A DNA stretch of 64,000 bases from Schmidtea nova (Eukaryota). The notes beneath the pieces are model-generated. The model was not told where the DNA came from, made no database searches, and worked only from the letters and a program-made list of their open reading frames with translations. Location of the stretch: the NCBI GenBank assembly GCA_044892505.1, contig CM097884.1:133796001-133860000 (forward strand). The letters run 5' to 3'. Shown piece by piece: positions 5,927 to 63,379 of this stretch; position 1 is the first letter of the stretch; the number at the start of each line of letters is the position of its first letter. The position numbers and the translations under genes are program-made.

Positions 5927-6060
5927 AAAAAAGATCAAAGGTGAAAAAAGATAATTATGATAAAAAGAAATATATCAATATTAGTAATAATAATAATAAT
6001 AATATACTTAGGAAAATAATGACAATATCACTTGAAAATAATAATAATATTAATCACAAT

Positions 6061-33528: not shown

Positions 33529-36500
33529 TGTTGGGCCCGCCAAATCACCTAAAACCACAATAAAACGAACAAAAGCATGAAACAATAAAGAAATAATAAA
33601 AATAAAAATAGCAAGAAAAACAAATTAAAAATAACAATAAAACGACAAATAATAATTGATAAATTTTCAGTAAAAGGAAATTTTGAAAATAAACCGGTAA
33701 ACAACCGCAAAAGGGGGCCTGAAATAAGAAAAAATAGAATTAAATAAAATAATAGTGCAAATAATTAATTAATTATTTGAAAAATCAGGACCACCCAGCG
33801 AGAAACCGGAAAAGGAAACAAAATAATGTTTAGATTAGAATAAAATAATAAAAAATACTTTGATGGACGGCCTGATCCTGATTGGTCAATCCAACCAGAC
33901 GGATCAGTATAAATACCGATCCAAAAATCACAACAAGAGACGTTTTACTTTTCACTTACAATCAAGACTAAACTTTGATTTAAGTAATATTTCATTTAAC
34001 AAAACGAGAATTTTTTGAAAAACAGAATTCAAGTACGGAACGTAATTTTTATTGTTATTTTTTATAATGTACCCATGATTTTTATTCAATTAAAATTTTA
34101 TATGTAAACGTCATTTTATTTGTTTTTGATATTGATATTTTAATGCATATAGTTATACTTCCTATGCTGCTCACGCGGCGAGGGAGTCCGAGTCGTCGTT
34201 GTGGGGCCTCAGTGTCTCACATGGCGGTTCAACCTTTTTATTATTTAGTTTAGATGTGGAATTTTATTTAGAAAATTTGATTGAATTCTTAGTCTAGTAC
34301 AGACCATTTACTAATTATTTAAGTCTGGGTTGCACAACGGACGAAGGTCGAGGGCCAAATAGGGAGATTGCGGAGGGCGGATTGATAAGGAGGGACACCC
34401 CATGGTAGGGCATGCTCATCCTTTGAATTTTTAGTCAATTGAATCGTAATGGAACCTCCCGCATGGAGAAACAGTGAGCAACAAATAAAATAAATTTGAA
34501 TAATTTCGCTGAAATGAGAAAATTCATCGTAGTCTAAAGTCCGATTTCATTCGGAATCAGCATCTCGCCTACAAAATTATAATATCGATAAATTCCGATC
34601 GCGTTGGAATGCGTCGGAAAATCCAAATTAAATTAGTTACTAAAAATAGGCCGATCGTCGTATATGGCGCGGTTTCCCAAGTTATTCTCCGATCGCTGTA
34701 TACAGCGCGGAAATCTGTATTAAATTCTATATTCCTGAATGCTGTATATAGCACAGGACTAATTATGAACTCTTTATTACGACCGTGGTAGATCACGGCG
34801 GAAAAAGATAAAATTAATCTTATTTTAAAGTAACTTTTGTGATTATATGCGGTATAAATGAATTATCAACAAATTCCCTCCGGTAAATCACATATTTTAT
34901 ATTCAATAAATGTAATATAGATGTCGACAGCCGAACTTAGGAATCAATTAACTCAACTACGGAATGTGGAACAAAGGAATATACAGAATGGAAAGATCTC
35001 GCAGCTCAAGGATCTACCGGCATCGATATTGCGAACCCTCAATTGCCAGATATATAAGTGGCGACATGGGTTTGGCCGAAAATGCCCGTTCTCGATATGG
35101 ACAGGAGGGAACGACCAAATACTCTATAGAGGAGGACCGAACTGGCCGATTTCCCAAAGGCCTTATTCAAACAAATTTGGCCGACTTATCGTACTAGTCA
35201 AGGACACAGATGGACGGACAAGCCGTGTAATTTATTGGGGGCATATCCCTCGTCGGGAACTATGCCAACTAGGCCTACACGAATTTCTACCACGAAAACC
35301 ATTCGGCAAGGAGTGCCAGAAAGGACAACCCTCATTCTCTTGGGCTCGTCTTCGTCGGAGGCCGATTAACAGCGAATTCCATAGCTTGTTTCGGAGATAA
35401 AAAACTGATTGACAAATGTGTAAATTGTGTTCAAATATTAATGTTCAGTGGTGTTTTTATTTTGTTGTTTTGAGTTTTTGTTCAGTGTTTTTTAATAGTT
35501 CGTATTCGTAACCTAATAATCCTATAATCAGATTTTAATTTTTCACATAATTTAATCATAAAGTAAATCTCCTAAATAAATTATAGAATGACCACCGATT
35601 TGATACAGAGAGAATTGGAAAAGATGTGGCGGATCCGGAGAGCCCAGGACAAAGAATTGGGTCTCCTCAAGGCACAATTGATCAAAGCAGAGGCACAGAT
35701 CGCATACTTGCGCAAAAGCTGGTTTGCTCCGGCCCGAATGAAGGAGCAAATCAGCAAAACCGAACGCGCCCAACAGACCGCAGCCGATTATCAAATGGAA
35801 TGGGAGGCTACAAAGATAGAGCTCCGAAAATGCCTCCATTCCGTAACTGCCTCATATATCGAGAAGGAACTCAGAGAGCAAATCCGTCCGGTTACGTACC
35901 AAGCTTGGACATCCGAAAAGAAGACTGTAAATTCCATTGGCACGGATGTCGCCGATCTAATCGAAAGTCGGAATGAGCCGGTTTCAGCAGTAATTCCATC
36001 CACCTCAACGGCAAATGCGCACCAAAAACGCAAGCGCATTGGGCAGAAAAGGCGAAGACAGAGGAAATTATTCGCGCAGCGATTACAAAGTCAAGTGGAT
36101 GGTCTACATCAGATGACCGAAGAGAACTTATTGAAGGAAATTTTCCCTTCAGCTGGAGTTTTTACAGAACTAATTAAATAAAATTTTGGGTTATCTTAAA
36201 AAATTTATGTTTCCTTTAAATTGATTTGGTAAATTGACAAATAATTAGATCAATATAGTATAAAAGTATAAATTCACATCACGAATTATCTAGTAAAGGC
36301 AAATAAATTATTAAGCGAGCAGTTTGATTTAAACGCTTCCCGCAGAATACGAAATGTTGAAAATAAATTTTCTAAAAAGATTATTGCGGAATATCTAAGC
36401 AAATGATTTAAGCATAAGTCCTTCTAACGGCAGCAATGGACCCGTAAACATAAATGGGGAGTAGTACTAGCGATAGTGCTCACCTGCCCATCATTGTTTA

Positions 36501-36647
36501 ACCACCCTGCGCATCACCAACTTGATTATATAGGGAAATAATCAAGGGCGCTTGAGTGTAAAATTGCAATTTTATGTATGATCATGGATGAGGGATCCCT
36601 AGTCATTGTTAGAACATTTTTCATCTAACCCCTCCATGAACCCAGCA
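33529..36647 (+). repeat. LTR2 (shared central LTR, 3119 bp)
   Basis: Same sequence as LTR1. One private SNP was spotted (T at 34213 versus G at 7490 and 60945). It is preceded by the 3' priming region and followed by a PBS. Confidence 0.95.
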
Positions 36648-36976
36648 TAAATTTGGGGGCTCAGCCGGGATTAACTTCGTTTTATCGGAAAAATGTAAAT
36701 GTAAAACCTGCAGAGAAGTTTAAAATGCTCGTGTCAATTAATTTAATAAAAAACAGAAAGGTTATAATTAAATTTAAATTATTGTATTAAAATAACAACA
36801 TGGCAGTGAACAAAAGTGAAGTTAACAATTAAATGCATGCATAGATAATTTGTCGGGACGACAATTTTCGGAAACACGGGGAGGATTGATAAATATTAAA
36901 AGATACAAAACGAAACATATTACTACTTTAGAAATGAGAAAAAATAACAAAGTTAAAACAATTATTTATTCAGTAA

Positions 36977-37438
36977 ATGGAGGAAAAACTGAAGGAAATC
37001 GAAGAATTTCTCAACACGGAAAGCGAAACATTAGAAACGATTGGCAAGAAAATAAACCGATTTAGAGAAATTGAATTTCAGGAACCCACAACACAGACTG
37101 AGGAAACAGAGGAATTAATAAAGATAACAGAAAGAACAAGTAAAATCGACATAAAGACCCGCTACAAATGGTACAGAGCACGATTAGAAGATGCAGAACT
37201 AAACATTAAGTTCAGGCAAATAGGACAACAATTAACCCCAACATACAATCGATGGAGGGCGCAAGGGGTAGAAGCAGCGAAAAAATACCGACAGTGCTAT
37301 ATATGTGAGGATAGGGAGATACAAATTATGTTTTTACCTTGCGGACATTTTCGTTTTTGTAAAATATGTGCCAGCAAGCGCGACCTATGTCCTATGTGCA
37401 ACCTGATGATAGACGATAAAATTATTGTATATTTATAA
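36977..37438 (+). CDS. IAP-type RING protein, unit 2 copy
   Basis: Identical translation to 10254-10715. Confidence 0.85.
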   Translation: MEEKLKEIEEFLNTESETLETIGKKINRFREIEFQEPTTQTEETEELIKITERTSKIDIKTRYKWYRARLEDAELNIKFRQIGQQLTPTYNRWRAQGVEAAKKYRQCYICEDREIQIMFLPCGHFRFCKICASKRDLCPMCNLMIDDKIIVYL

Positions 37439-39273
37439 TAAATAAAATTTGAATGGAATTTTATTGGTTTATTAATGATAAAATCATGGGTACAATTGTC
37501 ATATATAAATAATTTTTGAGCTACTGCAAAGTAGTCCGATAAGAATCCATTGGGAGGTACCGATTGATCAACCTAGTCAGGGTGTATAGAAAGGGGCCCA
37601 TCGCAAATGTTGGAAAGTTTTTGTGATGTGATTGATCACCACATCCTGCATTAATGGACCAACGCGATCTTTTTGTATATTTTGGTTGGGGAGAGAGATA
37701 GGGAAATCGTGATGGAGTAAAGCGCGCATAGAGAAAAATAAATAAAAAGGCTAACGCAGACTGATCAGTAAATAATCACGATAGAATAGAGAGAAATGAC
37801 ATTTTTGAAAGAATAAAAGGTGCATAGTCAGCTCGCATAGAAGTAGTTATAACTCAGCTGAGAAATTTTAATCGCTAGCGAAGTAGGGAATTGTGATTAA
37901 CCGGTTAAGTAAAGTTATATGAGATTTGTCCCTTGAAACAAAGGGTTAGGAGATTTGTCCCTTGAAACAAAGGGTTAGGAGATTTGTCCCTTGAAACAAA
38001 GGGTTAGGAGATTTGTCCCTTGAAACAAAGGGTTATGAGATTTGTCCCTTGAAACAAAGGGTTAGGAGATTTGTCCCTTGAAACAAAGGGTTATGAGATT
38101 TGTCCCTTGAAACAAAGGGTTAGGAGATTTGTCCCTTGAAACAAAGGGTTATGAGATTTGTCCCTTGAAACAAAGGGTTATGAGATTTGTCCCTTGAAAC
38201 AAAGGGTTATGAGATTTGTCCCTTGAAACAAAGGGTTATTAGCGGTTTGTCCCTTGAAAAAAAGGGTTGAGGCCAATGAGCCTTATTGAATGACCTAGCT
38301 AGGCGTTATGGAGAAATTAAATTGAGGCCAAGAGAGCCATTTGAGAGATTAAATTGAGGCCAATAGAGCCATTTGAGAGATTAAATTGAGGCCAAGAGAG
38401 CCATTTGAGAGATTAAATTGAGGCCAAGAGAGCCATTTGAGAGATTAAATTGAGGCCAATAGAGCCATTTGAGAGATTAAATTGAGGCCAAGAGAGCCAT
38501 TTGAGAGATTAAATTGAAGCCAAGAGAGCCATTTGAGAGATTAAATTGAGGCCAAGAGAGCCATGTGAGAGATTAAATTGAGGCCAATAGAGCCATTTGA
38601 GAGATTAAATTGAGGCCAATAGAGCCATGTGAGATATAAAATTAAGGCCAGAAGAGCCATAGTGAACTATAGATATATCCGGATAAAATAGTAATAGAGG
38701 GAATATAGACCCATAGTGTAATCGTCGACGAGATTTAGAGTAGTGCGCACCAGTAGTTAAGAGAATGCGAGTAAAGCTGATTATGCAACCTTAGGTAAAG
38801 CATGCAAGGAGAATAATAAAAATTGGAGCTGACCGGAGAAACCGGCAGAATAGACAAAAGGATAAGTTAGAGACGAATAATGAGTAGAGATGATAAAATA
38901 ATGATAAACGAGTCAGAAAGACTCAGGGAATTAGAGCGCTCGAGCGACCAATAATTTGGGAAACGGTGGGAAAAGTAATTGATTTGATAAAACATAGATA
39001 ATTATTACGACATAAACAGATAATTGTGACCAGTCTATAGATAATTTAAATAGACTAAAAATAAAGGGGAATCTGGGAATTGGGAAATAATGAAAACCCA
39101 GTAATAAGTAATCCCGAAAGAAAGTGAATAAAAGCGCGACGATAACAATAATGTATCGTTGAGGACCTTTGTATTTTAGATATACAAATCAATCAAATCA
39201 AGCAATCAAGCAAGAAGAATCAGAACACGATAAGAGATAGGACAAGAAAATTGAGTATACAAAAGTAATCCCC

Positions 39274-42200
39274 TTGAGAAAAGGAGCAAAGAGTGTCGTA
39301 GTAAAGCCAACGGAAAAGAAAGTCGGTAGCAACATTAACAAAAAAGACAAAACTAGTACTACAACAAAATCAACAAAAAAGCAGAAAGCCGGCAAAGATA
39401 ACCCACAAGGGAGTAAATCGAGGAAAATAATAAGAGATAAATCGATTACCGAAAACGATAAATTGTCAATAGTAAGCAACAGCTCAAGTAACAAAGAAAA
39501 CCAAGCCGAACCCAAGGAGAACCAAGCAAGTGAAATAGAGAGCGACGAAACTAACAACAATAATATCGAAGAAATAGAACACGAGATAGAACAAGAAGAA
39601 GAAATCGACGAAACTAACAACGATAATATCGAAGAAGTAGAAAACGAGGTAGAACCAGAGATAGAAATCAACGCGAGTGATAACGAAAGTATAATATCAG
39701 ATAACGAAGGAATAAAAGAAACAGAAAGCGATTCAAGCTCGAGTAAAACGGAAGACGAACATAACAACGAACTAGAAACAAGAGGAAACGAAAGTAAAAT
39801 AACTCAAGACAGCGGAATTGAAATGGGTGAACCAAGAGAAGAAATAAAGGATAAATTTTCAGGAGAACCGTTTAACGGAGATGCGAGTAAATTAGAAACC
39901 TTTTTAAAAGAATTTGGCATATTCGTGGAGGTATGCAAGTGGAAAGCTGAAACAACGGTAAGCAGAATTCAGTTATATTTGAAAGATAGTGCATTGGACC
40001 TATATTTGGAAGCGAAAAATGGTACCAATCCACCTACAAGCTGGACAGCGATAAAGGATTTTTTCCAACAAACATTTGGAATAAATAAAGTGCTGAGCGA
40101 GGCATTCATAGAATTCTCAATGAGGAAACAAAAGATGAATGAATCTAATGCGGTATACGCGAGCGAACTGAAAAAATTAGCAAAATCGGTATTCAAGGAT
40201 GGAGGCCCAATAAACGAGGAGTTAATGGCAGCTATCTTCATAGGAGGACTAAAAAGACCCGACATAAGAGCGCAAGTAGGATGTCAAGGATGCAAAACCA
40301 TAGATCAAGCGTTAGAAACAGCTAACCGATTTGAATTGCATATGATAGGAAGTGAGGGCAGAATTTATTTAGCCATGGACACAGCACAAACCGAACCAGA
40401 GGTAAATCTCAACAATCACATTCCAAATTCGCAACAATTAAACCGACCACCCCCTCAACGAAGGAATGAAGGAAATAAAGTGCAGAACTTTGGAAACCAA
40501 AACAATTACAACCCTCAAGGACAAACAAAACAATGTAAAACATGCGGGAAGTTGGGACACTGGCAACAAGAATGCTATCAAATTTTGAATTGCGGAAAAT
40601 GTGGAGTTAAAGGACATTCGGAGAGTAGATGTTCTACAATAATCTGTTTTAATTGCGGACGACCTGGTCACTATTCAAGAAATTGCGGACAAAAAAGTAA
40701 TCAACGAGGAAACTGGCAGAGTAATGGGAACCGACCAAATTACGGAAATCAAGCAAATACCGTAAACCGACCAGATTATGGAAACCAACAAAACAACAAT
40801 AACAATAATCAGAACAAAACTACCACCAAAGAAATTCATTTGATGCAAGAAGTTCAAAGGTTGACGGAACTGATAAACAACACGGCGAGAGGAAATCCGC
40901 AAATCAATCCACAACAAATTAGCATGATGAGAAAGATAGAAAGCGAAAACGAACGATTAAATCGAGAAAGTCAGGCACGACACGCTCAGGAATGGGCAAG
41001 AATACAAAGGGAAGATGAACAAAAACAACAAGAAAGAGAACGACAACCTCTAAGAATTAACATGCTAAGAGCAACAAACCAAACAGACACTCGCGAGAAA
41101 GAAACCACACTGGAAATGAATTCGATAGACCCGAATCCAGCCGACAACAAAAGTCAAAAGGAGATAGTACAAAAAGATGAGGAAGTAGAAAAAGAAACAG
41201 AAAAGGAAGTGGAAACTGAGATAAACCAGGAAGAGAGAAGAAAAATTTGGAAAAAAGGAATGATGGTAATCATGCCCAACGACCATATGTTTCGATTCCA
41301 ATATAACGCAAAAGAAAAGGTGGAAATACTGTTCAATAAAGTAAACCAGATGATTCCAGGAGTGACAAAACTGCCCAGAGAAGCGTTCTTACAAATAGGA
41401 GATGCACCATCAGTAAAATTGAAATTAACGGATATATGGGAAAACGTGGGAGTAACAGAGACAAAAAGAAATGTGATGAGAATTAAAGAAATAGAACCAG
41501 AAGAAATTCCACCACCAATACGTCACGAAACCCGAATCCGGCGAATATTTGAAGGAAAAATGATAAGAAGACGTTTAAAAGAGATAGACGAGTTGGGAAA
41601 GAAAATGGAAAAAGTCGAAGTAATAGAGGATAAGAGTGAACCAACACCAGAAATTGACAAAAACGAACCAGAACCAACGGAGAATATACAAGGGGAAACG
41701 AACCAAACAGCACATATTAATATGCTAAGAAATACCACCAGAGAGTTCTCCGATGAGGAAGAAGATAGTGACATCAGTAGCCTAGCAGGAGACATATTAA
41801 ACGAATCCGAAGACGAAAATAAAGAGAGAGAAGTAATAAAGACCTCAGAACCTACACAGATAAAAGTAGATGAAATCCAGAAATTACTAGATAACTCGCT
41901 AGAGGTAATATATAACGAAGAGTTCATGGACAAGAAACAATATCGGAAATTCATGAAAGCATTATTACAAATGAACTACAAAGAATGGTTACAAGACCGG
42001 GAAGTAGACATGTTGAATCGATACGTAGGGAAATTAATAGAGGAACCACTCCTCAATTACACCATCTCAATAATAATAAATACATCTACACCAAGAATCT
42101 GGATCAAAACTCCATTTACAGACGATATCTACAGATGGGTAGAGGATAGACTAGGGAGCTCATATAAAAACAAATTCATCTATTCGCAGAATAGACTCGT

Positions 42201-45200
42201 AAAGAAAAGAACTCACTTAGTAGAAACAGGTATATGGCCAGGAGAAATAACCCTGTTATCAATATGTGATGAAAAAGAAGAAGAGAACCTACAAGAAGTT
42301 GCAAGGGAAGCAAACGCGTGCTTCGAAAGGAGAATAAAACCACGGTTAGAATACGAGAAAGAACGAGTTTTGCGAAAGAATCTAAATTCCCTGATAGAAC
42401 AAATCATACCACAAGTCAAAAAACATAGAAAAGAGTTAATGAGAAACGAATACGAGAAATTGAAACGATGTATTGAGTGCATACGTGACACAAGCCACAC
42501 GAGATGGTCACAGATCTCACACGACAAATTAATCGCAAAAATGGGAAAAACAATGTTTAGACAAGGGAAAATAACAGATCTAAAAATTTCAGTAGCATTA
42601 CCTAATGAGGACACCAAAGAAATTGAAGTGGTAGCGGATTGCACCATTAAAGAATTAATAAATGTCATCAATGAGACACTAGTGCAAAGAGAACCAGAAG
42701 ACGAATGGGAAGACGACATAATCATACAATACAACGAACATGTATTATGGGATCACGATGAGAGACGACTATATAAAATCGGTATATGGGATAATCACCA
42801 AACAATCCACGTTAGCAGAATGGACGATACACCAAGGGAAACTGCTAAAGATGAGAAAAGAGAACGGGAACGACGGAAAGAAGTTGTGCGTAAATTACAA
42901 CAAATAGTAGAAATTTATCGAAATTGGCGAATTTGGCCAGAGTGGGAAAATGTATTAGAAGAACTCAATCTCAACAGACGAATACGAACACCCGTAGAAA
43001 AACAATGGAACGAGAAAGGAAAATGTTGGGAACCAAAAGAAGGAGAATATGAAGAAGAATATAAAAGAGGGATAGAAGATGACCGCGAACCAGAGATAGG
43101 AAGAGTTTGCATGGTAACAAGGAAAGCTACGCCAATAGACCTAGATGGACCAGAAACAGCGGCCATGTGGTTAGAAAGGGAAAAGCAAAAAACGGAAGAA
43201 TTTGTCGAAATATTGAAAACTAATGCGCACGGTAAGAGAAAATTAATAAAGGGTCTCGCAGATTTTTTCGTGGTAAATGGGGAGGATATAACATGCTTGC
43301 GTAAAGTAGCAAAAGCAATCGCGGAATATAAAAGAGTTAACGAGTGGTGCCCGGAACAACTAGACCACGTAATTAGGAAATGGAGAAATCAAGAATTCTC
43401 GCAAGAAATTCCACAGAAAGTACATTTAAGAATAATATATCCAAACAAGGATAAGGAAGAGTTGTGGGTAGGAATAGCAGAAAAAATTCGAGATATCAAA
43501 AAGAAATTGAGATACGAACCACCATTCCATTTACAACACCAAGGACGATCATTAGATAACAGTTTAGAAATTGGAATAACGCCAGCACAACTAGATCTCA
43601 TGAATACCTTGACAGTAGAAGCAATAGCAGGTCAACCATTGAAACATAAAGAAGAAAACCATAAACCACACGGAAGTATAAGTACGCCGAGCCCGATGAA
43701 ATCAGTATTAACACCAGGGACAAGTTCGAGACGATCTGAGACAACACCCAGAGGAACCAGAGAAAGGACTCCACCACAACCATACGACGTGGACGAAATC
43801 CTAACAGATAGCGATGATATGATAGAAGAATTAACTGAATTAACAAAGGAAAAAGACGATAACATTTTCGAAAGAATACAAGAATTACCTACGACAATAC
43901 AAGTAACCAACACCGGAGAAACAGAAGTCGAAGAAGAAATAATAATAGAAGAAGTAAACGATCTGACAGAAGACGAAACGAGAAGAGCAAATGTCGAAAA
44001 TGTACAATTAACACAAGAAATGGAAAGATGGTTAGAAGAAAGAGCTAACGAACCAAGAGATGTCACGGAAGAAACCGGACGGGCAACAAGATTTGTGGAA
44101 ACAGGCACAGGAATGGATAAACGACCTAGAGGTAGACCTAAGACAGACCCAGCAACTGTAGTTGTAAGAAATAAAGACGAAAAGAGACAAGATCAATGGG
44201 AATTATGTTTAAGGAAACTAAATAAAATTGCGGAGATGAAAGAAAAAGAGACAACACCAATATGTCAAGGGGAGGAATGGATATCAAAAACAATAATGGA
44301 AATATTGGCAATAATTGATCCGGAATTGAGAAAATACTGGCGGATAACTGAGATAAGCGAAAAGGCGAAGTCACTACACAGCGCAATCGCACCCATCCTA
44401 CCAGAATTCATAAAAGAAAAGACGAAGTCAAATCATTTAGACTGGCAAGGAACCACGATGTTAATAAAGAAATTGACAGAAGGAGCGGAAACTGATAATA
44501 AATACGTAATAGCCATCGCATACACGATCTACAATCTATTAGCACTGAGTAGAGGTCGACCAAAACCCACTGCATTAGAGAGACATATAAAAAATACCGC
44601 AAAGATTATAGCTAGAGAAATAGAACCTCACGTTATTAACAAAGGAGGATGGGAAACATTTATAAAAACTAACCAGAAGAAAACGCAAGCCAAGAATATG
44701 AAAAAGAAATTCGAAAGAATATTGGAAGAATTAGGAAAAGAACAAGCAGGAACAGGAAACACGAAGCCATCAATGAATTTGAGTTCTATAATAATTATGA
44801 TGTTGATATGGATGATTAGCACCGATAGCGCAACAGCATTCGAAGTGTTTGATTGCGACCAAATGAAGTTAGGAGAAAAGTATTCATTGAGGGGTACGGA
44901 GCAATGCAAAGATGCAACTCCAGTAGAGTTACAAAAGATTAAAAAGGAACAATGGTACCACGTGTATCAAGAAGCAGAACTCATAAAGACAATGGTGAAT
45001 GAATGTAAGGTGCAGAAGACGAGATTCGCTTTCTACTGCGGGAGAGGACATTATTCAGCAATTGTCATGCCAGGAACGGAAAGAGAACCAATCGTGTTAC
45101 AAGGAGAAGACTGCGAAGCACTGTTTAAACACGGAGAAGTAACAACAAGAGATAAAATCAAGATAAGAGGAAAGCCAGGAATGATGATGCAACAGACGTA

Positions 45201-54200: not shown

Positions 54201-56289
54201 ACTACAATTTAATAGCGAGTATGAAGTATGTACAATAGAAAAAATGGACACACTAGGAAACCAACAAGAAAGATGCGAAACCTACTATACACCAGCAAAC
54301 GCGACATCAAAAGGAGTAGCAAGGAAACTCGAATTCAAAGAACTAAGCCAAACGAATGAACAAATGGACGCAGAAAAAACAATAACCGACCCTCAAGCAA
54401 AATGGACACCCGAAGAAGTTATCAAGGAAGTCAAAAGAAAGCAAGAGGAACGGGAACAATTAATGAGAAAACTAAAGGGACAATACGGAATAATGTTCAA
54501 CCAAAGCGAACCTATACAAACAGACGAGAATAAAGAAATTAAAGAACTAATCGGCTTAGGAATATTAACAGCAACCATACCAGTAATAATCGCGTTATCA
54601 GCTATATGGATACGCAAGATGAGCCCAAGAAAATCAACAACCCAATGGCTAAATATAGATAATACAAGCCATGGAGTAGAAATACTAGAAGAAAAAGCAC
54701 GAGAAGAACCAAATAAGAAAGAAGCGAAAAGCGGAAAACTAGGAATAAACAACAAAGACAAGGAAATAAAAGAGATTAAAGGCGAAGAGAAAAAATATGA
54801 AAGGCGAACCAGAAGCCTACCGCAGAGTTCAAAATGGTTGAGTCTAACAATAATATTGACATTAATCAATAGGGAAGAAGCAACAAACCTACAAGCAGGG
54901 ATAAAAATAGTAAATGTCCAGGAGGTCGAGAAAATATGCTGGAATAGAGAGGATGAACCAATTGGGAAAGATAACCCACTAAAATGTATAATCAGAAAAT
55001 CCGACCAGGATATAGTACGAATAGAAGGGATGGACAGAGGAATCATACATAGGATATGCATAATAGGAAAGGAAAAGAAGTCGGGGCTACCTAAGACAGT
55101 CGTATGTCAAAAATACGAAACGCCTGGACTCGAATGGTATAGAGTAAAACCAACAAAGAAAGAAATCAAAAACACCATAGATCAACCAGCAACTCAGATA
55201 AGAAACACAACGGATAAACCAGGAGAAGGAGAGAAAAGCACCAATAAAACGAGAGAAAGAATATTACCCCAACAGGAGTGCGTATGCATAGCATTAATAC
55301 TAGCAATGTCCAAACGTATCGATAAAGGAATAATAATAGAACAAATGGCCATAACAATAAGGAAAACAAGTAGCAACAAACTATGCTGGGGAACATACAA
55401 CGAACCAAGGAAGGAATACCAAGTTCAGACAAGCGACGAATCACGAACAAACAAGGAAATCGAAATACAAGAAATACAAATGAATGAAGAAGGAAGTATA
55501 TGTATCTGGGAGAGAGGAATCCAAGAGGGAATAGAGCATTGCAAGACATTCCAAAAAGGAGAGATACTGAAATTCGATGAAGAAGAATTAACAAAAACAG
55601 AAAGAACTCTGACATTAACAGGACTCGATCAGACAGTTAAAGGAATATGTTGGACAAAGCATAACCCAGAAGGGGAAGAAGACAACCTAACCCACTGTAA
55701 AGAAATAAAGAATAAAGAAAAAATCGAATTAAGGAAAATGGAAGTAAATAAGACATACGCGATATGTACCTTCACTAGAAAAGGTTCAGAAAAACCAGAA
55801 TGCGGATTATATCAGATCTCAGAGAAACTACAACAACAGATCGAACCAGGAAACGTGGAAAACCGAACAAAAGAAAATAACGTCAAACAACTACTAAATC
55901 GCCATTGGTCTACACAAGAAGTAATGAACAAAGTCAAGAATCAAGTACAGAAGGAGAAGAAGCCAGAGGCTCAAACCCAAAATGAGATAAAAGCGAATCA
56001 GAATAAAATCAAAGCAACAAACCGTGGAAAAACAGTAATAGGATTAATCAGTATAGGAATATTAATAGCATATGGGATAATGACGACAAGCATAATAAAA
56101 TATTGGAGATACAGAAAGAGAAACAAAGCGACAGCCATACAATGGCCAGATATTAAAATTATGAAGCAAAGAATAGAAATACCAGAAGAGATACAGCAAG
56201 AATTCCAAAGAAGAACGAAAGGTAAAGAATTCTGGAAACAAATAGAAGACGAAGAACGATACGAGGAAAAGACGATAATGATGGTATAG
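39274..56289 (+). CDS. gag-env-pol: Unit 2 intact Gag-Env-Pol-accessory polyprotein (5671 aa)
   Basis: Single stop-free frame of 17,016 nt containing all the modules listed for unit 1. Confidence 0.93.
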   Translation: MRKGAKSVVVKPTEKKVGSNINKKDKTSTTTKSTKKQKAGKDNPQGSKSRKIIRDKSITENDKLSIVSNSSSNKENQAEPKENQASEIESDETNNNNIEEIEHEIEQEEEIDETNNDNIEEVENEVEPEIEINASDNESIISDNEGIKETESDSSSSKTEDEHNNELETRGNESKITQDSGIEMGEPREEIKDKFSGEPFNGDASKLETFLKEFGIFVEVCKWKAETTVSRIQLYLKDSALDLYLEAKNGTNPPTSWTAIKDFFQQTFGINKVLSEAFIEFSMRKQKMNESNAVYASELKKLAKSVFKDGGPINEELMAAIFIGGLKRPDIRAQVGCQGCKTIDQALETANRFELHMIGSEGRIYLAMDTAQTEPEVNLNNHIPNSQQLNRPPPQRRNEGNKVQNFGNQNNYNPQGQTKQCKTCGKLGHWQQECYQILNCGKCGVKGHSESRCSTIICFNCGRPGHYSRNCGQKSNQRGNWQSNGNRPNYGNQANTVNRPDYGNQQNNNNNNQNKTTTKEIHLMQEVQRLTELINNTARGNPQINPQQISMMRKIESENERLNRESQARHAQEWARIQREDEQKQQERERQPLRINMLRATNQTDTREKETTLEMNSIDPNPADNKSQKEIVQKDEEVEKETEKEVETEINQEERRKIWKKGMMVIMPNDHMFRFQYNAKEKVEILFNKVNQMIPGVTKLPREAFLQIGDAPSVKLKLTDIWENVGVTETKRNVMRIKEIEPEEIPPPIRHETRIRRIFEGKMIRRRLKEIDELGKKMEKVEVIEDKSEPTPEIDKNEPEPTENIQGETNQTAHINMLRNTTREFSDEEEDSDISSLAGDILNESEDENKEREVIKTSEPTQIKVDEIQKLLDNSLEVIYNEEFMDKKQYRKFMKALLQMNYKEWLQDREVDMLNRYVGKLIEEPLLNYTISIIINTSTPRIWIKTPFTDDIYRWVEDRLGSSYKNKFIYSQNRLVKKRTHLVETGIWPGEITLLSICDEKEEENLQEVAREANACFERRIKPRLEYEKERVLRKNLNSLIEQIIPQVKKHRKELMRNEYEKLKRCIECIRDTSHTRWSQISHDKLIAKMGKTMFRQGKITDLKISVALPNEDTKEIEVVADCTIKELINVINETLVQREPEDEWEDDIIIQYNEHVLWDHDERRLYKIGIWDNHQTIHVSRMDDTPRETAKDEKRERERRKEVVRKLQQIVEIYRNWRIWPEWENVLEELNLNRRIRTPVEKQWNEKGKCWEPKEGEYEEEYKRGIEDDREPEIGRVCMVTRKATPIDLDGPETAAMWLEREKQKTEEFVEILKTNAHGKRKLIKGLADFFVVNGEDITCLRKVAKAIAEYKRVNEWCPEQLDHVIRKWRNQEFSQEIPQKVHLRIIYPNKDKEELWVGIAEKIRDIKKKLRYEPPFHLQHQGRSLDNSLEIGITPAQLDLMNTLTVEAIAGQPLKHKEENHKPHGSISTPSPMKSVLTPGTSSRRSETTPRGTRERTPPQPYDVDEILTDSDDMIEELTELTKEKDDNIFERIQELPTTIQVTNTGETEVEEEIIIEEVNDLTEDETRRANVENVQLTQEMERWLEERANEPRDVTEETGRATRFVETGTGMDKRPRGRPKTDPATVVVRNKDEKRQDQWELCLRKLNKIAEMKEKETTPICQGEEWISKTIMEILAIIDPELRKYWRITEISEKAKSLHSAIAPILPEFIKEKTKSNHLDWQGTTMLIKKLTEGAETDNKYVIAIAYTIYNLLALSRGRPKPTALERHIKNTAKIIAREIEPHVINKGGWETFIKTNQKKTQAKNMKKKFERILEELGKEQAGTGNTKPSMNLSSIIIMMLIWMISTDSATAFEVFDCDQMKLGEKYSLRGTEQCKDATPVELQKIKKEQWYHVYQEAELIKTMVNECKVQKTRFAFYCGRGHYSAIVMPGTEREPIVLQGEDCEALFKHGEVTTRDKIKIRGKPGMMMQQTYYVAGRITGGEGYCQGETYPIFGVPATNLVVMDTYIVELKSYEAFFEPTTGEMKTLSMCKIDRSMCQTGMSTLVYKPKVNECQLQLLQGAKFDEIQGKTFQEEDDDDKDRAKHLKEALENKRQLKPDHREKRIEMRATPTVLITTNQDVGMRFIKGKATLKCSTTVYETNYPGIYVSKQEVPNAKPKIDTMDIKLHLYVNNKMDFLFHRGQASLQKVYYDLINNDCILNREILKTKLAVAITNPDRAMPLLPLREGHFGRVVGEAMYVYICEKTHASLAATTQLKPGTCTNELEIDYKGKVRYVQPVTRIINPPGFEPNPFNCSNAYGPLYQKPDGRWVMFPGRSEVIAPREFELMQLSKDRQFSDVDVSNNGIYSPKDLEAARQNILFPARREALLSNIVTITGGTNYREGPNYELLLSPAHFKKATENMMKAMWGRFLIFGQMMAGILGVILIIQIVRVIITQMLACFDIYKREKKVNWKMVVGFLPFLAKTMVLHGHSKDIHRIKRLLKILAKMKGTDEEVGRKFKKIMNDEQARQQLKRERKGLWERMKGYKTQNDSSDDDDDDDDYKGGQVYKNQAPQYIEKNPADAWKCYAPPPTMYQEPLQGGKNSTMQMMPMTNVYPMIPEDYKMRRCRSVDPQGDTHTIAVMSSNTGPVLTMTIEINGREIEAMIDTGANISAIDIKWIPQEQRREIERTNVHVIACSKEVVEVAGRWWVKIRHLNTEIDTYVAVIPALSVPCIIGTDLMPALFKEIVIDLGTMRLKDRTGQICAIEAKVTSSKQMIIPARKEKICYVKIDPTIQGDMIFEPSKRFEKRKALPMARGLVNINDNGEIPINMVNFDEEDKIIYENERLGKLTPMMDIELPIEGAEKDKEPTWNIDSELLNEDQRKQLEKLLIEYKDIFAASDLDLGTCDVTLHTIPLTDETPIALRPYKLAEAQKAVAEAEVKKMLDAEVIEPSCSPWQFPVVMVKKKDGTQRFCIDYRRLNTVTKRDTYPLPDINEMLLTLQGAAYFTSLDLKSGYWQIKMKEEDKEKTAFTIGRDLYQFRKMPFGLTNAPASFQRCMNFVTHGIKQCMVYIDDLLIYSSTFKQHIHDIRDVFVRLRQWKLKLKPSKCDWAKEKVTFLGHIVSAKGKEPDPRNIDKVKECPVPKTITQIQEFLGLCGYYRKFIKDYAGIAKPIQELVKKDVSFIWGDEQQTAFETLRDKLITAPILVHPDFKKPFLLATDASGYAAGAVLGQYDDEGKERVIGYYSRTFKKHEKNYSVTEREALAIILAIKHFKYLLWGHIICITTDHQPLVWLGQHKETSSRLMRWAMQLQEYSPDIKFKSGRANANADCMSRLTFPELTDPDVQRICVLIAEDLDFSELKKDQQEDKELGQIIEFLTSRNMEVFKDNKELKEHIGKYQHRYIINKGWLLIQDGEKRLMCLPENRRKEIMIQYHDGKLGGHMSEKKTINRMRQKYYWRTMEEDIKEWIKNCLTCATRKDSGKKWKNPLQPMPIPAEPMTTIAMDVIGPLPESLNGNIYILVITDYLTKFPEAFAMQDQKAKTVAKILVEEICCRYGTPKQILTDQGTNFMSELLNEVTNYFRIAKLRTSPYHPQTNGQTERFNGTLIRMLSNYVSRHQTDWDEYIKLCLMAYRMSIHAATKLSPFQLMYGRECNMPIDLEYQPPLSQYMEDDDYVTKFKERMQEIWKTAELNIKFYQESYKDLHDQKKNVKANDLKPGDWVIIETPEIIPGTVKKLQRPGRGPYEIIYKKDNNVKVKLINRPLIRPIYVNTCRCKKVPKTITTTPENRIITRSQTARINMLRANATEDDKAEIRQKEIRNKEIILKAREIMGRWHVKDEVGISRDIRHIISRYAQGLPTEPIISELLEKIPEILLLKDVGGQPALHNAIECKNIERAKEFLKIAKETNQNLDVGNREQETPLMTAAIHQADKEMVDLLIKAHFSWTERDREDKTVLNHVIWSSHQPMLKYIIANSTWEIDELVKGDIIKEAIKIGKCNTIRKLVKWKRPEDDTWVLDINEVYSEGQNALLRYLLKFTCDQKTLLTLLDRGNINITKNEEEHQFDKEKNALFNKIRKWCAKPLDKLITYKDINNFNEKYQTIVSEYEELVKILNHPEKCKQVLEKKERESNKKLTPLFKAEAPYQARLDAIQKKAKELLPEFENSKHALEILGALVEKVHAYAKGTYNGNDITTIKKEMPVTFLLPKDGIMPIHRALRNGKDRKVMEIARVMLNCGSNMNMIDEKGDTLMVFAARAKTKTKVLEELYKAGAGLTGKTDKDNSILDVALLTHNWEMVNFIKTISNQEEIEYLTKTIKKPSLLTMMHNAELTESILTWINPNTNEPAFKINEFTEHNQNWCIRSALITYKWPEILKMFMERKDLRITTSPKEEKYTGKWKELMKTYINNWIKAKKEILEYKSTNKVIPEQVETQEFEASNLTTLAYAKLIEEINVEDDIFDEPGGDDNTDSDDGNNSENSNDHEPPDKEENERKDKKRDKEEKESEDEKQRDEDGEQGKNDQGDKNDTQRTSYKSTIKPFFKPELLLLTVILTLINPSQGMTCEERAIIQIKNAKGIERVCWSKKDKITEQNSPMDCRISKHEQEIIEINDLDLDTWYKICTVRKQKHPRSHNTIACAKYQTPKAAMTIQQSPKGDYILGKCGRTETQGTENKKPQAIDKQTTPTLRITIERPETRIATNETERVSYQMEVLCLALILIIIKRLEEGIEIETMTITEVEDTQNTNIKCWARNDEEIGVNEIRKSRKPTTNKVIKVSEIRADKMYKLCLLEKERNKKGTTKCKTFQPGEVIKFRRRTRKRNKQIKQKLNITLEIKEIEPNVKGVCWRKYEKETNERKTPQCRTSTGATTIQIKGLESKQTYEICLVKKNDQITINDLECGIYTTSSGTRTKTLTRKNKRRQRNKGKPKYTTTFKNNKQPISQEVTTKPERKTSATLTLWKIENKTLEICWIIVQKHIRRQSRECRKTNKEIKIEKLQFNSEYEVCTIEKMDTLGNQQERCETYYTPANATSKGVARKLEFKELSQTNEQMDAEKTITDPQAKWTPEEVIKEVKRKQEEREQLMRKLKGQYGIMFNQSEPIQTDENKEIKELIGLGILTATIPVIIALSAIWIRKMSPRKSTTQWLNIDNTSHGVEILEEKAREEPNKKEAKSGKLGINNKDKEIKEIKGEEKKYERRTRSLPQSSKWLSLTIILTLINREEATNLQAGIKIVNVQEVEKICWNREDEPIGKDNPLKCIIRKSDQDIVRIEGMDRGIIHRICIIGKEKKSGLPKTVVCQKYETPGLEWYRVKPTKKEIKNTIDQPATQIRNTTDKPGEGEKSTNKTRERILPQQECVCIALILAMSKRIDKGIIIEQMAITIRKTSSNKLCWGTYNEPRKEYQVQTSDESRTNKEIEIQEIQMNEEGSICIWERGIQEGIEHCKTFQKGEILKFDEEELTKTERTLTLTGLDQTVKGICWTKHNPEGEEDNLTHCKEIKNKEKIELRKMEVNKTYAICTFTRKGSEKPECGLYQISEKLQQQIEPGNVENRTKENNVKQLLNRHWSTQEVMNKVKNQVQKEKKPEAQTQNEIKANQNKIKATNRGKTVIGLISIGILIAYGIMTTSIIKYWRYRKRNKATAIQWPDIKIMKQRIEIPEEIQQEFQRRTKGKEFWKQIEDEERYEEKTIMMV
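40534..40686 (+). other. Three CCHC zinc knuckles of Gag (unit 1: 13813-13965)
   Basis: CKTCGKLGHWQQEC, CGKCGVKGHSESRC and CFNCGRPGHYSRNC. Confidence 0.95.
44773..46688 (+). other. env: Envelope-like glycoprotein, chuvirus-G-like (unit 1: 18041 to about 19956)
   Basis: Hydrophobic signal MNLSSIIIMMLIWMISTDSATA, then FDC…YSL…C, CKV…FYCGRGHYSAIV, CTNEL, GIYSPKDL…ILFPA and TM FLIFGQMMAGILGVILIIQIV. By eye this matches the chuvirus/Anakin glycoprotein pattern. Confidence 0.75.
47152..50562 (+). other. pol: Pol: aspartic protease, RT, RNase H, integrase with GPY/F-like motif
   Basis: AMIDTGA (47221), RFCIDYRRLN, MPFGLTNAPASFQR, YIDD (48436), TDASG, ADCMSR, HDGKLGGH…CLTC, MDVIG…TDQG…QTERFN and RPGRGPY. 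Gypsy order; no chromodomain seen. Confidence 0.97.
50859..52122 (+). other. Ankyrin repeats, two blocks, fused after integrase (unit 1 about 24127-25390)
   Basis: GQPALHNAI, QETPLMTAAI…EMVDLLIK, DKTVLNHVI, GIMPIHRAL…VMLNCGSNMNMIDEKGDTLMVFAA and DNSILDVAL. Confidence 0.85.
52849..56289 (+). other. Two duplicated membrane-anchored modules of Cys-containing FN3-like domains (unit 1 about 26117-29557)
   Basis: Seven CW…C…I.I..L…Y.IC…C..Y units, two signal-like segments (LLTVILTLINP, LSLTIILTLINR) and two TM segments (LIGLGILTATIPVIIALSAIWI, VIGLISIGILIAYGIMTTSII). Confidence 0.65.
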
Positions 56290-56863
56290 GGGCGGATTAT
56301 GACTGTAAATAATAGTGTAAATAACAAAGCATTACCGTAATAGTATGGGTATCGATATTATAAAAATTGTAAAAAGCTAGAAAAACAAAGTAAATGATGT
56401 ATATAATTTAGAAATGACCGAACAGGACGAAACAACTGAAATAACTATGGCTATGAGATGGAAGGCACAATGTGATTTATTAGTACGAACAGTCAACTCA
56501 TTACAGAACCAATTAGCGGAAAGACAAATGTTATTATCAGAAAGTTATAACAACTGTTTTGAACAATTACACAGAATAGAAGAACAACAAAGAGCGATAA
56601 CTGAACTCACCAGAGAAAATCAAACGATAAGCAACACCAATCAAAGACAAGCAATAGAAATAAACCATTTAACACGAGGAGAAAGAGAAGGATCCGAAGA
56701 AGGATGGATGAGTTGGGTAATAAATAGATTAAACAACGAAGCGGAACCAGATTCAACGAATGAGCCATAGATAAATAAAGCGGAAAACTGTAAATATGTA
56801 AAAATAAAAACAAGAAAAATCAAAAAATAAATGACAAGTCGAATGTATATATTATTGTAGAAA

Positions 56864-58240
56864 ATGGACAGAGAAGAACGAATAATCGAAATTTTGAGAC
56901 TAGAAAACAGAAAATGGAGCAAGAGACTCACATGCGGAAAATGTAATAATTTATTGCGAGAACCCAGACAAACGATATGTGGATGTAGAATATGTACAAA
57001 ATGTATACAAGAATTAGAGGCAACAGGAATAACAACATGTCCAGAATGTAAAGAGGGAAGAATAGTGTTGGACGAAACTAGAACGGACAAAGCAACCCAA
57101 AGAGAAATTATGAGCACCACAACGGAGTGCGTAAATACACCTTGTACATGGCAAGGACAAATAAGCAATCTAGAGAATCATATGGGAAAATGCGAGGAAA
57201 AGAGAGCCGAATGTGAGAAATGCCAACAGACAATAACTCTAAAGAAGAGAGAACAACACAAGGAAGAATGTAAAGAAGAAGAAATCGCATGCGAGTATTG
57301 TGAAACTCGAGAAACGAGGAGAAAAATCGAAGAAGAACATTTGAATATAACAGAGGAGAAAGTATGCGGACAATATGCAAGTAAATGTCCAAACGATTGT
57401 GAAATAACAGAAGAAATAAAGTTACATGAACATTGGAAAGTATGTACCGAAAGGCCAAGAGAATGCCCATATAACAAGCATGGATGCAAGGAAAAGCGGA
57501 CGCGACAAACAATGAACAAACATCTAGAAGAAGCAGCACTTACGCATGTGGAAATGACAAACGAAACGACAAGAGAAACGGAACAGACAATCCAGAAATT
57601 AGGAAAAGAAGTAGAATCACATAAGATAATGATGAGTTTACTACTAGAAACAAGAGAGCAGTTTGAACTAACTCGCGAAAGAATGGAAAAGAAAATAATA
57701 GCCATAGAAGAATTAGGAAAAGGAATGAAAATACAATATAATCAATTAATACGAGAAATTGACGAAAGAAGGGACTTACCAATCGCACCTTACCTATGGA
57801 AAGTAACAGATTTCAGAGACAAACTAGCAGAAGCCAGAAATATGACGAAAACAGCAGTAATAAGCCCACCATTTTATTTATGGAAAAACGGGGTTAAAAT
57901 AAGATTGAAAGTATACCCAAATGGAGACGGAAGAGGACAAGGAACACACGTGTCAATATTCTTCTCACTATGTAAAGGAGAATACGATGACCTAATAGAA
58001 TGGCCCTTGAAAGTAGGAGTCATTATAAGAATCAAAAGTATGGGAAAACCAGTAGAAAAATTCTTTGAAACAGACAAACATACGAGTACAAGTGAAAAAC
58101 CAACAACGGAATGCGGACTAGCAGCAGGAGAACCAATGTTTATAAGGAAGGAAAACCTATGGGAACGACTATATGCAGACACGCTATACATAGAGATGGA
58201 GAGGCATGAGAAAACGGATAAAAAAGGATGGTTGGCGTAA
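56864..58240 (+). CDS. TRAF: TRAF-family protein, unit 2 copy
   Basis: Same as 30132-31508 except V/E in NL(V/E)NH. Confidence 0.92.
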   Translation: MDREERIIEILRLENRKWSKRLTCGKCNNLLREPRQTICGCRICTKCIQELEATGITTCPECKEGRIVLDETRTDKATQREIMSTTTECVNTPCTWQGQISNLENHMGKCEEKRAECEKCQQTITLKKREQHKEECKEEEIACEYCETRETRRKIEEEHLNITEEKVCGQYASKCPNDCEITEEIKLHEHWKVCTERPRECPYNKHGCKEKRTRQTMNKHLEEAALTHVEMTNETTRETEQTIQKLGKEVESHKIMMSLLLETREQFELTRERMEKKIIAIEELGKGMKIQYNQLIREIDERRDLPIAPYLWKVTDFRDKLAEARNMTKTAVISPPFYLWKNGVKIRLKVYPNGDGRGQGTHVSIFFSLCKGEYDDLIEWPLKVGVIIRIKSMGKPVEKFFETDKHTSTSEKPTTECGLAAGEPMFIRKENLWERLYADTLYIEMERHEKTDKKGWLA

Positions 58241-60260
58241 TGAAGGAAATAACCATGTAAATAAAATGTAGAAACAATATGAAATAACAAATAATCAAAA
58301 ACAATAAAAATAAAAACTGATTAAATATTCTCTTTATCTGTAATTATAGAAATGGGAAATATAGAGGTAACCTTACAAGAAGTAACCGTACATCAAGACG
58401 AAATGATCAGAAATCACATGGAGCGGATTGGGAGATGGATTCATGCCTATTATCGAAAACAGGAGGAATTAGAAAGACAAACCGAAGCACTAAGAGAAGC
58501 CGAGAAAACGAATCAAAGAAGTCGAGAAAAAATAGAAGAAGTCTACAAACTGCTAAGACAACAAAACGAATACTACAAAGAGATGATGAAAGAGCGAAGA
58601 GAGGATAGGGATAGACAACAGATAAAAACAGACCATAAGATCCAGTCAATCACCGAACAAGCAAGATATTGGAAGAAAGAGGCAAAAGACTCTTACAAGG
58701 AAGCAAGGGAGATAATAGAACGAACAGCGTATAGCGATGATTGGAAACTATTTAAAGAGATCGATGAATTAAAAGAGGAATTAGGGCAAAAGATCAGTCA
58801 AGAAGCGTCAAATAAAGTATGGAGTAAGAAAAGACAACAATTTATCAGAGAACAAGCCAAGAAAATTAAAGAATTAACTTATCAAGTGCAAAGAATGGGA
58901 GAAGATTTGGCCAATCAAGAACAGTTAAAAGGTATGCTGACCGGAATGTGGAATCACAAGGAAGAAAACATGAAAAGAGACATAAATGGATATCAAGGAG
59001 TGATTACCCAGAAGAAAATAGAATTAAAAAGAACTAAAGAAAGACTGGAAGAAACGAGGCAGAGTTATGAAGAGAACATAACAAATTTGACAAAAGAAAA
59101 CGAAGAACTGAGAAAGAAGTTGGCAGAAAAACCAATACCAATAAAAGAAACAAGTATCACAGCAGCAGTGACCGAAATGATGGAGAAGGAAGAGAGAGAG
59201 AAAAAATTGACAGAACTGGAAAAACAAATTGAAACCCTAACAGAACAGGCGAACTATCTGGAATACTTATTAGATGAAGAGATCCAGATATCCCACACAT
59301 ACCGAGAAGAAGTAGAAATGTGGAGGAGCACGGTAATATGGATGCCACTCCCCATAAACCAAGTGGAACCTCAAGACGAAGGTTTTCACGAACCCAACGA
59401 AACCCTGGTATAAATGCGCGGAAACCAAGTGTAAATAAATTATGTAAAATAAAAAATGTCAAACTGTATTGACCAATGTATAAAAGAGATGAGAAAGCTC
59501 ACAATAGCAACCCTCCTATGGTTAACAACCATTACCCTACAGAGAGAAGATTTACAACTAACCGAAACCCAATTACGAGCTCTACCCGACAAAACCTACC
59601 AGAAAGTAGACAACCTAATCGAGGAAGTAATTAAAGAAATCAACGAATTCCGACAGAAATACCCCCACAATCAAGACCATCAAATCCAACAAATTTTCGG
59701 TAACCAACAACTGAAATTAAAAGAAACCCGAAAAATCCTGAGAGAGGGTAGAGAGCCCATAAAAAGCCTATCCCAAGCTGAAATAGAATATCAAGAAAAA
59801 TGGATCATAGCAATCATCATAATCCTATCAGTCAGCACAACTATCATCGCAATCACAATCCTACTTGCCTCATATAGAATAAAAATCCTAAAACAAAAGC
59901 AGAAAATCTACAACCAAACCTCCAGACGAGATAACCGAGCTCAAAGACGAATAAGGAGCCATCTCAACCACATTCAAACCCACTACGAGCTACAAATAAT
60001 CAACGAGAGGACCCGAACTCAACCCCAAGCGAGCCAGACGATCGAACAAATTGTATAAACATTATGATAACTTATCGAACTATTGTGACAAATCATTACA
60101 TTTTGACTATTTAGTGACAAACTTTATGATATGTATAAATTCGATCACCTTATGTGATTTTTCTTTGCATGTATAACTTTATAAAACTTTTTATGGATGA
60201 TGAATATAAGTAGTTATGTATAATTAATTGCGGGACGCAATTTTAGGGGTCCCCGGGTGA

Positions 60261-63200: not shown

Positions 63201-63379
63201 AGCGATAGTGCTCACCTGCCCATCATTGTTTAACCACCCTGCGCATCACCAACTTGATTATATAGGGAAATAATCAAGGGCGCTTGAGTGTAAAATTGCA
63301 ATTTTATGTATGATCATGGATGAGGGATCCCTAGTCATTGTTAGAACATTTTTCATCTAACCCCTCCATGAACCCAGCA
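60261..63379 (+). repeat. LTR3 (3119 bp)
   Basis: Same sequence. Identity with LTR1 and LTR2 stops exactly after …GAACCCAGCA at 63379. Confidence 0.95.

Follow-up and report, generated by a model that had tools for sequence, protein, structure and literature searches.

A single polyprotein gene, carried by a young Burro-type Ty3/gypsy long terminal repeat (LTR) element of Schmidtea nova, probably encodes a product that is threaded through the membrane of the endoplasmic reticulum (ER) and cut by both host signal peptidase and the element's own protease. The gene was found in a window of 64,000 nucleotides (GenBank assembly GCA_044892505.1, contig CM097884.1, positions 133,796,001 to 133,860,000 of the forward strand), the whole stretch that was analyzed and to which positions refer unless another locus is named. 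Translation from 39274 yields 5,671 residues without an internal stop, which bears out the one uninterrupted gag-env-pol frame claimed in a preliminary description of this DNA. The Pfam matches also come in the order claimed there, with Env between Gag and Pol and ankyrin repeats thereafter: zf-CCHC (E 4.6e-9), Monjiviricetes_fusion (PF24664, E 2.7e-73), RVP (E 7e-8), RVT_1 (E 5e-37), RT_RNaseH (E 1e-38), Integrase_H2C2 (E 2e-20), rve (E 3e-11) and Ank_2 (E 7e-15), in addition to Retrotrans_gag at E 1.8e-4, under the Pfam cut-off. The overall layout is Gag, three ubiquitin-like domains, a Bcl-2-like domain, a signal, Env, a transmembrane segment (TM), protease, reverse transcriptase, RNase H and integrase (PR-RT-RH-IN), ankyrin repeats, and two modules that each comprise a signal, an ectodomain and a TM.

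Purifying selection is evident in all 11 segments of the frame that were tested, with ratios of nonsynonymous to synonymous polymorphism (pN/pS) of 0.06-0.33, as determined from 17 of 33 long-frame copies and three shorter ones, a choice that biases counts of stops and frameshifts. Such a long frame, or the tandem array in which it lies, could conceivably be an artefact of assembly or composition: the strand is very A-rich and T-poor, for which reason fewer stops are expected by composition, and the two tandem units of 26.7 kb, which have the middle LTR in common, are 99.93% identical. However, among the env-start matches scored in the genome (the best 150 of 2,740 candidates, all 97-100% identical), 33 of 150 independent loci hold the full frame at 5,641-5,736 aa, selection acts at the protein level, the same plan recurs in relatives from other sources, and both a target duplication and an empty site are present. 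The artefact reading of the long frame is refuted by these findings, and we give virtually no credence to an artefactual origin of either frame or array.

The arrangement extends well beyond this family. A search of proteins of 3,119-9,925 aa (1,404 candidates) returned four relatives of 3,761-4,029 aa, all of which encode in one frame Gag, a signal, Env, a TM with an amphipathic helix, Pol, a signal, an ectodomain, a TM and a short tail. A second family of the same genome (C1 209.25-209.27 Mb; 3,427-3,442 aa) has an identical single-frame plan, and the gag-env-pol order that the preliminary description had proposed to seek in relatives is present in all of them. Pol is 43-44% identical to that of relatives, and the post-integrase signal, ectodomain and TM are kept in six of six divergent polyproteins. 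Several other features of these relatives were also encountered. In the second family, the LTR is ~760 bp, the one post-integrase membrane module ends in ETFV, and a downstream ORF, exonuclease-like by eye, has TTTCAG two bases ahead of its ATG. The four database relatives encode two or three protease-like domains, one past the Env tail and one past integrase, and three of the four end in a C-terminal motif that we take to be of the class I PDZ type.

The alternating membrane topology proposed in the preliminary description is supported, though not shown: hydropathy and flanking charges speak for it, as do the invariant cysteines and its conservation across five divergent relatives. Hydrophobicity was scored on an approximate scale after Hessa 2005 that applied no weighting by position. 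Numbered from 39274, signal-like cores occur at aa 1839, 4527 and 5189 (S1, S2 and S3) and TM-length hydrophobic segments at aa 2420, 5095 and 5587 (TM1, TM2 and TM3); the segment following TM1 is too polar for a TM on this scale (+7.6). The cysteine content is 2.5-3.4% in the predicted lumenal parts versus 1.3-1.6% in the cytosolic parts, and the flanks of TM2 hold two basic and four acidic residues before it and four basic and no acidic residues after it. For Env, a signal-like segment stands directly ahead of the N-terminal xxxDC motif in all six polyproteins, the 14 cysteines are all invariant in six of six divergent sequences at 37-41% identity, and pN/pS is 0.06 across the first 240 aa. 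As in the gB-type errantiviruses, the ectodomain lies between a signal and a TM, its cysteines are conserved, and multiple copies are >98% identical. No relative of Env was found among PDB sequences. The ectodomain holds a single N-glycosylation sequon, so that the label of glycoprotein given in the preliminary description rests on homology. This single sequon would also suit an element that moves only inside cells and employs Env and its fibronectin type III (FN3)-like proteins for membrane anchoring or host manipulation, the latter being where the cargo points (TRAF, RING, Bcl-2-like, ankyrin and ubiquitin-like). We consider this unlikely, as Env is among the most constrained parts of the polyprotein and retains all of its cysteines, the furin-type site and the TM.

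Downstream of Pol, the two membrane modules are paralogous (27% identity across 469 columns, E 4e-52), and their seven repeats (four and three) have C-W..C..C in common. When one repeat was folded with a seven-sequence alignment, the result was a six-strand sandwich with a predicted local distance difference test score (pLDDT) of 79.8; of the ten best Foldseek rows, eight bear titles of FN3 domains or of scaffolds derived from FN3 (prob 0.97-1.0, TM-score ~0.5), and the ESM Atlas gave a lead of 0.85 to fn3 clusters. Folding module 1 from its sequence alone gave a poor model (pLDDT 42.8). These models suggest that the tail modules are likely FN3-like membrane proteins. Both are under purifying selection and evolve faster than Env, with pN/pS values of 0.26 for module 1 (20 copies) and 0.33 for module 2 (17 copies) versus 0.06 for Env.

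A number of observations weigh against parts of this interpretation, besides the sampling of copies mostly for long frames, with its bias in stop and frameshift counts. TM1 of the five relatives misses the 19-aa hydrophobicity threshold, though it aligns with TM1 here; S3 is weak (core -2.1); and basic residues occur on both sides of TM3. The Bcl-2 likeness is weak as well, with a two-sequence profile matching Bcl-xL at E 0.008 in the BH2 part only. For the tail, no match at E <= 0.001 backs the FN3 assignment (the best Foldseek FN3 rows are at E 0.014 or worse), its domains have no FN3 match above the Pfam cut-off and none among PDB sequences, and a search of 1.84 billion representatives with module 1 returned 0 relatives. 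Lastly, extra hydrophobic cores, S2' (aa 4694-4703) and S3' (aa 5336-5345), lie within the predicted ectodomains. S2' is the strongest 10-aa core of the polyprotein (-4.6, with KR after it) and yet is in a predicted lumenal part; all 20 of the 20 copies retain this core, which misfits a simple in-out scheme.

Because each module has this further short hydrophobic segment, missed in the preliminary description, the signal-ectodomain-TM arrangement "twice" given there is a simplification. S2' may pass into the lumen, or it may serve both to anchor the chain in the plane of the membrane and as a site of cleavage, in the manner of Erns. By extension, the tail might not consist of two plain type I proteins at all, if S2' and S3' were extra signal-peptidase sites or in-plane anchors, or if they flipped part of the chain into the cytosol; cleavage there would give four products, namely one released FN3-like domain and one membrane-bound remainder per module. 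Both segments are homologous, occupy the same place in the two modules, are kept in the copies examined, are predicted to be helical (at low confidence), and end in G with a domain start next. A comparable case is pestivirus Erns: according to the available excerpts, signal peptidase separates it from E1 past a helix that lies in the membrane plane (PMC8002126, PMC3937272). On the other hand, the cores are just 10-11 residues long, their -3 positions (E and D) are poor for signal peptidase, and the following domains have a paired-cysteine pattern, while the orientation of TM2 requires them to be lumenal. We regard such a divided or flipped tail as a tentative alternative, and two type I proteins are retained below as the preferred arrangement.

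Cutting on the cytosolic side has a candidate signature. An R-I-N-M-L-type motif is repeated at the capsid/nucleocapsid (CA/NC), pre-PR, post-PR, RH/IN and IN/ankyrin borders. Of 13 matches to a loose pattern of this protease-type motif, 12 fall in predicted cytosolic parts. INML itself occurs three times versus 0.06 expected, and a tighter pattern yields five matches versus a shuffle mean of 0.63, with 0 of 500 shuffles reaching five; the pattern was drawn from the same polyprotein, which makes this test partly circular. The repeated motif is compatible with cytosolic cutting by the element's protease, alongside ER cutting by signal peptidase. The ~100-aa insert between PR and RT, at the position of a dUTPase-like domain in Burro, had no Pfam match. 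Equimolar output, as judged from this layout, would follow for primary translation only.

The frame also appears to begin in an unusual manner. Position 39274, where the preliminary description begins the frame, is a TTG codon rather than an ATG, and the first ATG is at 39823, where the capsid domain starts. The extension ahead of this ATG exhibits coding-type periodicity, whereas the other two frames hold 18 and 21 stops. Its pN/pS is 0.32, and the indel calls comprise 11 in-frame and 0 frameshifting events, a count biased by the choice of the 17 copies for long frames; in contrast, the leader directly upstream has many 1-bp indels. Following the acceptor-like site at 39179, there is no ATG for 643 nt, the phase from acceptor to frame differs in 3 of 17 copies, and an in-frame stop intervenes in 17 of 17. 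Consequently, this acceptor cannot supply an in-frame AUG. Since the ATG-less extension is under coding constraint, a non-AUG start is pointed to, and the likeliest reading is initiation at either ATT 39250, whose A at -3 and whose G at +4 are common to all 17 copies, or TTG 39274, which is kept too. The flatworm spliced leader ends in AUG, and its joining at the TAG immediately upstream of the frame was also considered; this was ranked below non-AUG initiation because the TAG is replaced by TAA in 2 of 17 copies and the surroundings are rich in purines. The constrained extension further suggests that annotations of such polyproteins start too late.

Outside of the polyprotein, the unit encodes seven accessory ORFs, and a YAG lies 0-3 nt ahead of the ATG in six of them; for the remaining ATGs that lie outside the main frame, the figure is 19 of 196 (p 1.3e-5). 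Those of the leader and LTR ORFs are at 36973, 34920 and 35586; the one at the RING ORF, 3 nt ahead of its ATG, reads CAG or TAG in every one of 17 copies. No Pfam match was obtained for the LTR ORFs. The spacers of the 3' accessory ORFs measure 42-124 nt, and in every one TGTAAATA occurs 15-19 nt past the upstream stop; all five TGTAAATA of the unit, which we take to be Pumilio elements, are 15-27 nt past a stop codon in the four 3' spacers (56290-59455). The array may be operon-like or splice-resolved: the spacers of 93-124 nt match those of flatworm operons, with a median of 99 bp between cistrons given in the available excerpts for Schistosoma mansoni (PMC12582326), and ordinary cis-splicing would fit as well. 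Four DNA-like runs span both the host flank and the non-coding leader, and none of their joints that were listed (15 of 27, and 10) is of the GT..AG type, which is uninformative on splicing. Searches for genomic copies from RNA spliced at 39179 or 39240 returned 0 matches each; the patterns catch some junctions only and this is not evidence against splicing (a control pattern gave 163 matches, 99 of the first 100 unspliced).

The apparent use of splice acceptors at six of the seven accessory ORFs raises the question of whether output is set at the RNA level, with spliced or frameshifted messages giving excess Gag, or Env and the tail proteins arising from RNAs of their own, in which case the full threaded equimolar polyprotein would be a minor product. 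Capsid assembly normally needs excess Gag, which counts in favor of this scenario, as do a Met just ahead of S1 in this element (and in four of six polyproteins), another ahead of S2', 14 acceptor-like sites inside the frame, and many slippery-type heptamers, the latter by pattern alone. However, no acceptor-like site is located directly before S1 (the nearest are at 42189 and 45824), two of six polyproteins have no Met ahead of S1, and GTRAGT donors occur at 49301 and 51230 only, with none in gag. Moreover, families with just 37-41% identity in Env have kept the frame unbroken, and there would be no need for this if the RNAs were separate. We judge control at the RNA level to be rather improbable, and we favor the threaded polyprotein.

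Among the domains between Gag and Env, an aligned profile of eight ubiquitin-like domains matches ubiquitin and ISG15 (best single-domain E 2.5e-6), while single-sequence Pfam searches reached E 0.05 for one of the three only. The Bcl-2-like domain had no match in Pfam or the ESM Atlas.

When the element is compared with known systems, it is evident that the gene order itself is not new. The single-frame gag-env-pol layout, which headed the preliminary description, is already in print: in the available excerpts, planarian Burro elements, published in 2019, have env in frame between gag and pol, with one giant ORF in Burro1-4/GYPSM1 of Schmidtea mediterranea and in a Dugesia tigrina element (4,873 and 5,140 aa) (PMC6431247), and the GAG-ENV-POL order is known in three phyla, namely nematodes, bryozoans and flatworms (PMC13524379). 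Like Burro, the present element is ~30 kb and has one giant ORF, a Gag with CCHC knuckles, Ubi/SUMO-like domains, a domain in the BCL2-like position, env in frame before PR-RT-RH-IN, ankyrin repeats and MATH/TRAF cargo, which is a separate ORF in D. tigrina (PMC6431247). It is unlike Burro in its longer frame of 5,682 codons, its start without ATG, a TRAF ORF located downstream rather than upstream, and the two post-ankyrin modules of signal, FN3-like domains and TM, which go unmentioned in those excerpts, as do topology and processing (PMC6431247). A BIR domain, reported for Burro1, had no match in the 15 pieces scanned with Pfam; cargo varies among members, and a RING ORF is present here. 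We would file the element as Burro-type by layout and domains. Similarly, it shares with Smed_errantivirus_1-6 and other GAG-ENV-POL HSV/gB-type errantiviruses a Ty3/gypsy pol, a gB-type env upstream and multiple near-identical copies, its env being closest by eye to Smed_errantivirus_5 and _6 and that of the second family to Smed_errantivirus_1. That account, in the excerpts available, treats these as ORF arrangements and mentions no ankyrin repeats, single ORF, splicing, frameshift or second membrane protein (PMC13524379).

The preliminary description had also likened the polyprotein to those of flavi- and alphaviruses, and the resemblance holds for topology but not for descent. Flavivirus, pestivirus and alphavirus polyproteins are membrane-threaded by internal signals and stop-transfer segments and are cut by host signal peptidase and a viral protease. 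The polyprotein described here has no sequence relationship to them, belongs to a reverse-transcribing LTR element, and has its enzymes flanked by membrane proteins on both sides, not placed behind the last of these; in lieu of an RNA-dependent RNA polymerase and a class II fusion protein, Pfam shows RT, integrase and a class III-type env. In Anakin elements, env is reportedly 3' of pol. These elements, of the BEL/Pao superfamily and thus of a different one, also combine a chuvirus-related class III glycoprotein with an LTR retroelement, as excerpted (PMC7642597). In the literature found, the post-Pol modules and the ATG-less extension have no account; Grohme 2018 and Sacco 2022, outside that search, may describe tail modules or topology. 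What is new here would be the processing model, the duplicated FN3-like membrane tail and the likely non-AUG start.

The element measures 29,851 bp from LTR to LTR, with the order LTR-internal-LTR-internal-LTR within the window, and its features are collected in the table. Its assignment to Ty3/gypsy follows from the PR-RT-RH-IN order of pol, TG..CA LTR ends, a tRNA primer site and a short target duplication. The three LTRs differ mutually at 0-1 positions, and TTTT flanks both sides of the array. The insertion is recent, given that an empty site is visible in four DNA-like runs (one study, contigs; loose end at 63380). A frameshift near 17.98 kb interrupts the polyprotein gene of the first unit immediately upstream of the Env signal. 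The primer tRNA, tRNA-Pro(TGG), accounts for four of five ARAGORN genes at a locus at C1 459.6 Mb of the same genome, where a very large tandem array of tRNA-Pro genes has a period of 308 bp; the 3' pattern of tRNA-Pro has 899 matches genome-wide. Four env matches ~33 kb apart at C1 590.85-590.96 Mb constitute another tandem array of the same family. Over the env region (44613-46583), contig depth, which is a poor measure, is ~2x that of the rest in four of four runs at 90% likeness; this suggests that related families share this env. The tandem arrays of the leader are possibly a packaging or export element. Elsewhere in the window, a hAT-type transposase remnant occupies 94-2156 in two overlapping frames (Dimer_Tnp_hAT E 2e-6), and nested inverted repeats of 58-75 nt, like those of a miniature inverted-repeat transposable element or foldback element, lie at 4538-5942 and adjoin N stretches.

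Table. Features of the element by position in the window
Feature	Position	Strand	Basis or remark
5'-most LTR	6806..9924	+	TTTT target duplication (4 bp) on left side
First-unit copy of polyprotein gene	12520..29557	+	two frames, 12520-18087 and 17981-29557
Middle LTR, common to both tandem units	33529..36647	+	3,119 bp, TG..CA; contains ORFs 34921-35400 and 35588-36181
Two LTR ORFs, 159 and 197 aa from ATG	34921-35400, 35588-36181	+	repeated in each LTR
Primer-binding site	36654..36671	+	18 nt complementary to 3' end of host tRNA-Pro
Accessory RING-finger ORF	36977..37438	+	zf-C3HC4_3 E 6e-12; pN/pS 0.24
Two tandem arrays in leader between RING ORF and polyprotein	37921-38268, 38311-38660		29 nt x 11.9; 32 nt x 10.9
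Splice-acceptor-like site ahead of polyprotein	39165..39179	+	kept in 17/17 fetched copies; about 160 genomic matches
Single polyprotein frame	39241..56289	+	5,682 codons stop to stop
N-terminal extension without ATG	39241..39822	+	194 codons, basic then acidic
Gag: capsid-like domain and three CCHC knuckles	39823..40686	+	Pfam; CA pN/pS 0.06
Three ubiquitin-like domains	41251-41493, 42580-42813, 43423-43629 (span 41251..43629)	+	profile search
Bcl-2-like helical domain, GGW (BH2-like) motif at end	44191..44688	+	~40 aa before Env signal
Internal signal S1	44776..44838	+	predicted cleavage after S-A-T-A
Class III (herpes gB/chuvirus-type) fusion-protein ectodomain	44839..46518	+	PF24664; one furin-type REKR site
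TM1 and conserved amphipathic helix on its C-terminal side	46519..46690	+	hydropathy, alignment of relatives
Pol: protease, ~100-aa insert, RT (YIDD), RNase H, integrase	47170..50568	+	Pfam
Ankyrin-repeat region	50881..52143	+	Pfam; pN/pS 0.14
Module 1	52843..54615	+	signal S2, four FN3-like domains, extra core 53353-53382 after the first, stalk, TM2
Module 2	54832..56100	+	signal S3, three FN3-like domains, extra core 55279-55308, TM3; then 62-aa tail
Four 3' accessory ORFs	56414..60058	+	118 aa; TRAF-like, full (56864-58240); 353-aa coiled coil; 200-aa with hydrophobic segments
3' LTR	60261..63379	+	TTTT directly after

Based upon these features, a sequence of events can be proposed. RNA spliced to the acceptor at 39179 would be translated from a non-AUG codon near 39250-39274. 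Gag and the ubiquitin-like and Bcl-2-like domains would stay cytosolic, and S1 would send Env into the lumen; following cleavage, the S1 stub could serve as a C-terminal anchor ~40 aa behind the Bcl-2-like domain, a place comparable to that of the tail anchor carried by Bcl-2 proteins. TM1 would then stop transfer, leaving PR-RT-RH-IN and ankyrin cytosolic and tethered at both ends by TM1 and S2, until the element's protease frees the parts at the R-I-N-M-L-type borders listed above. S2-TM2 and S3-TM3 would each yield a type I surface protein whose FN3-like domains are of the disulfide type; alongside the fusogen, these two proteins would likely serve in attachment or as decoys for host signalling. 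Gag, Env and Pol would presumably be gathered by their tethering to the membrane, with no Gag-Pol frameshift required.

A bolder possibility, which we advance with considerable reserve, is that Burro-type elements are enveloped endogenous flatworm viruses that make a whole virion from one non-AUG-initiated threaded polyprotein. Their entry machinery would be split: the gB-type fusogen would precede Pol and specialized FN3-like attachment proteins would follow it, the latter being duplicated in this family and undergoing diversification. Signal stubs would also double as anchors for the Bcl-2-like and ankyrin cargo. Separate fusogen and attachment proteins are found in herpes- and paramyxoviruses; to our knowledge, they have not been described for any reverse-transcribing element. 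The literature found on Burro-type and GAG-ENV-POL elements, as excerpted, does not address how such polyproteins are made and processed, and in this lineage Burro RNA is expressed and PIWI-controlled (PMC8532177). As the element is young and abundant and its lineage expresses Burro RNA, the endogenous products should be open to direct study. If the threaded model is true, Pol would be packaged through membrane tethering rather than Gag-Pol fusion, and the element would represent a retroelement with separate fusion and attachment proteins.

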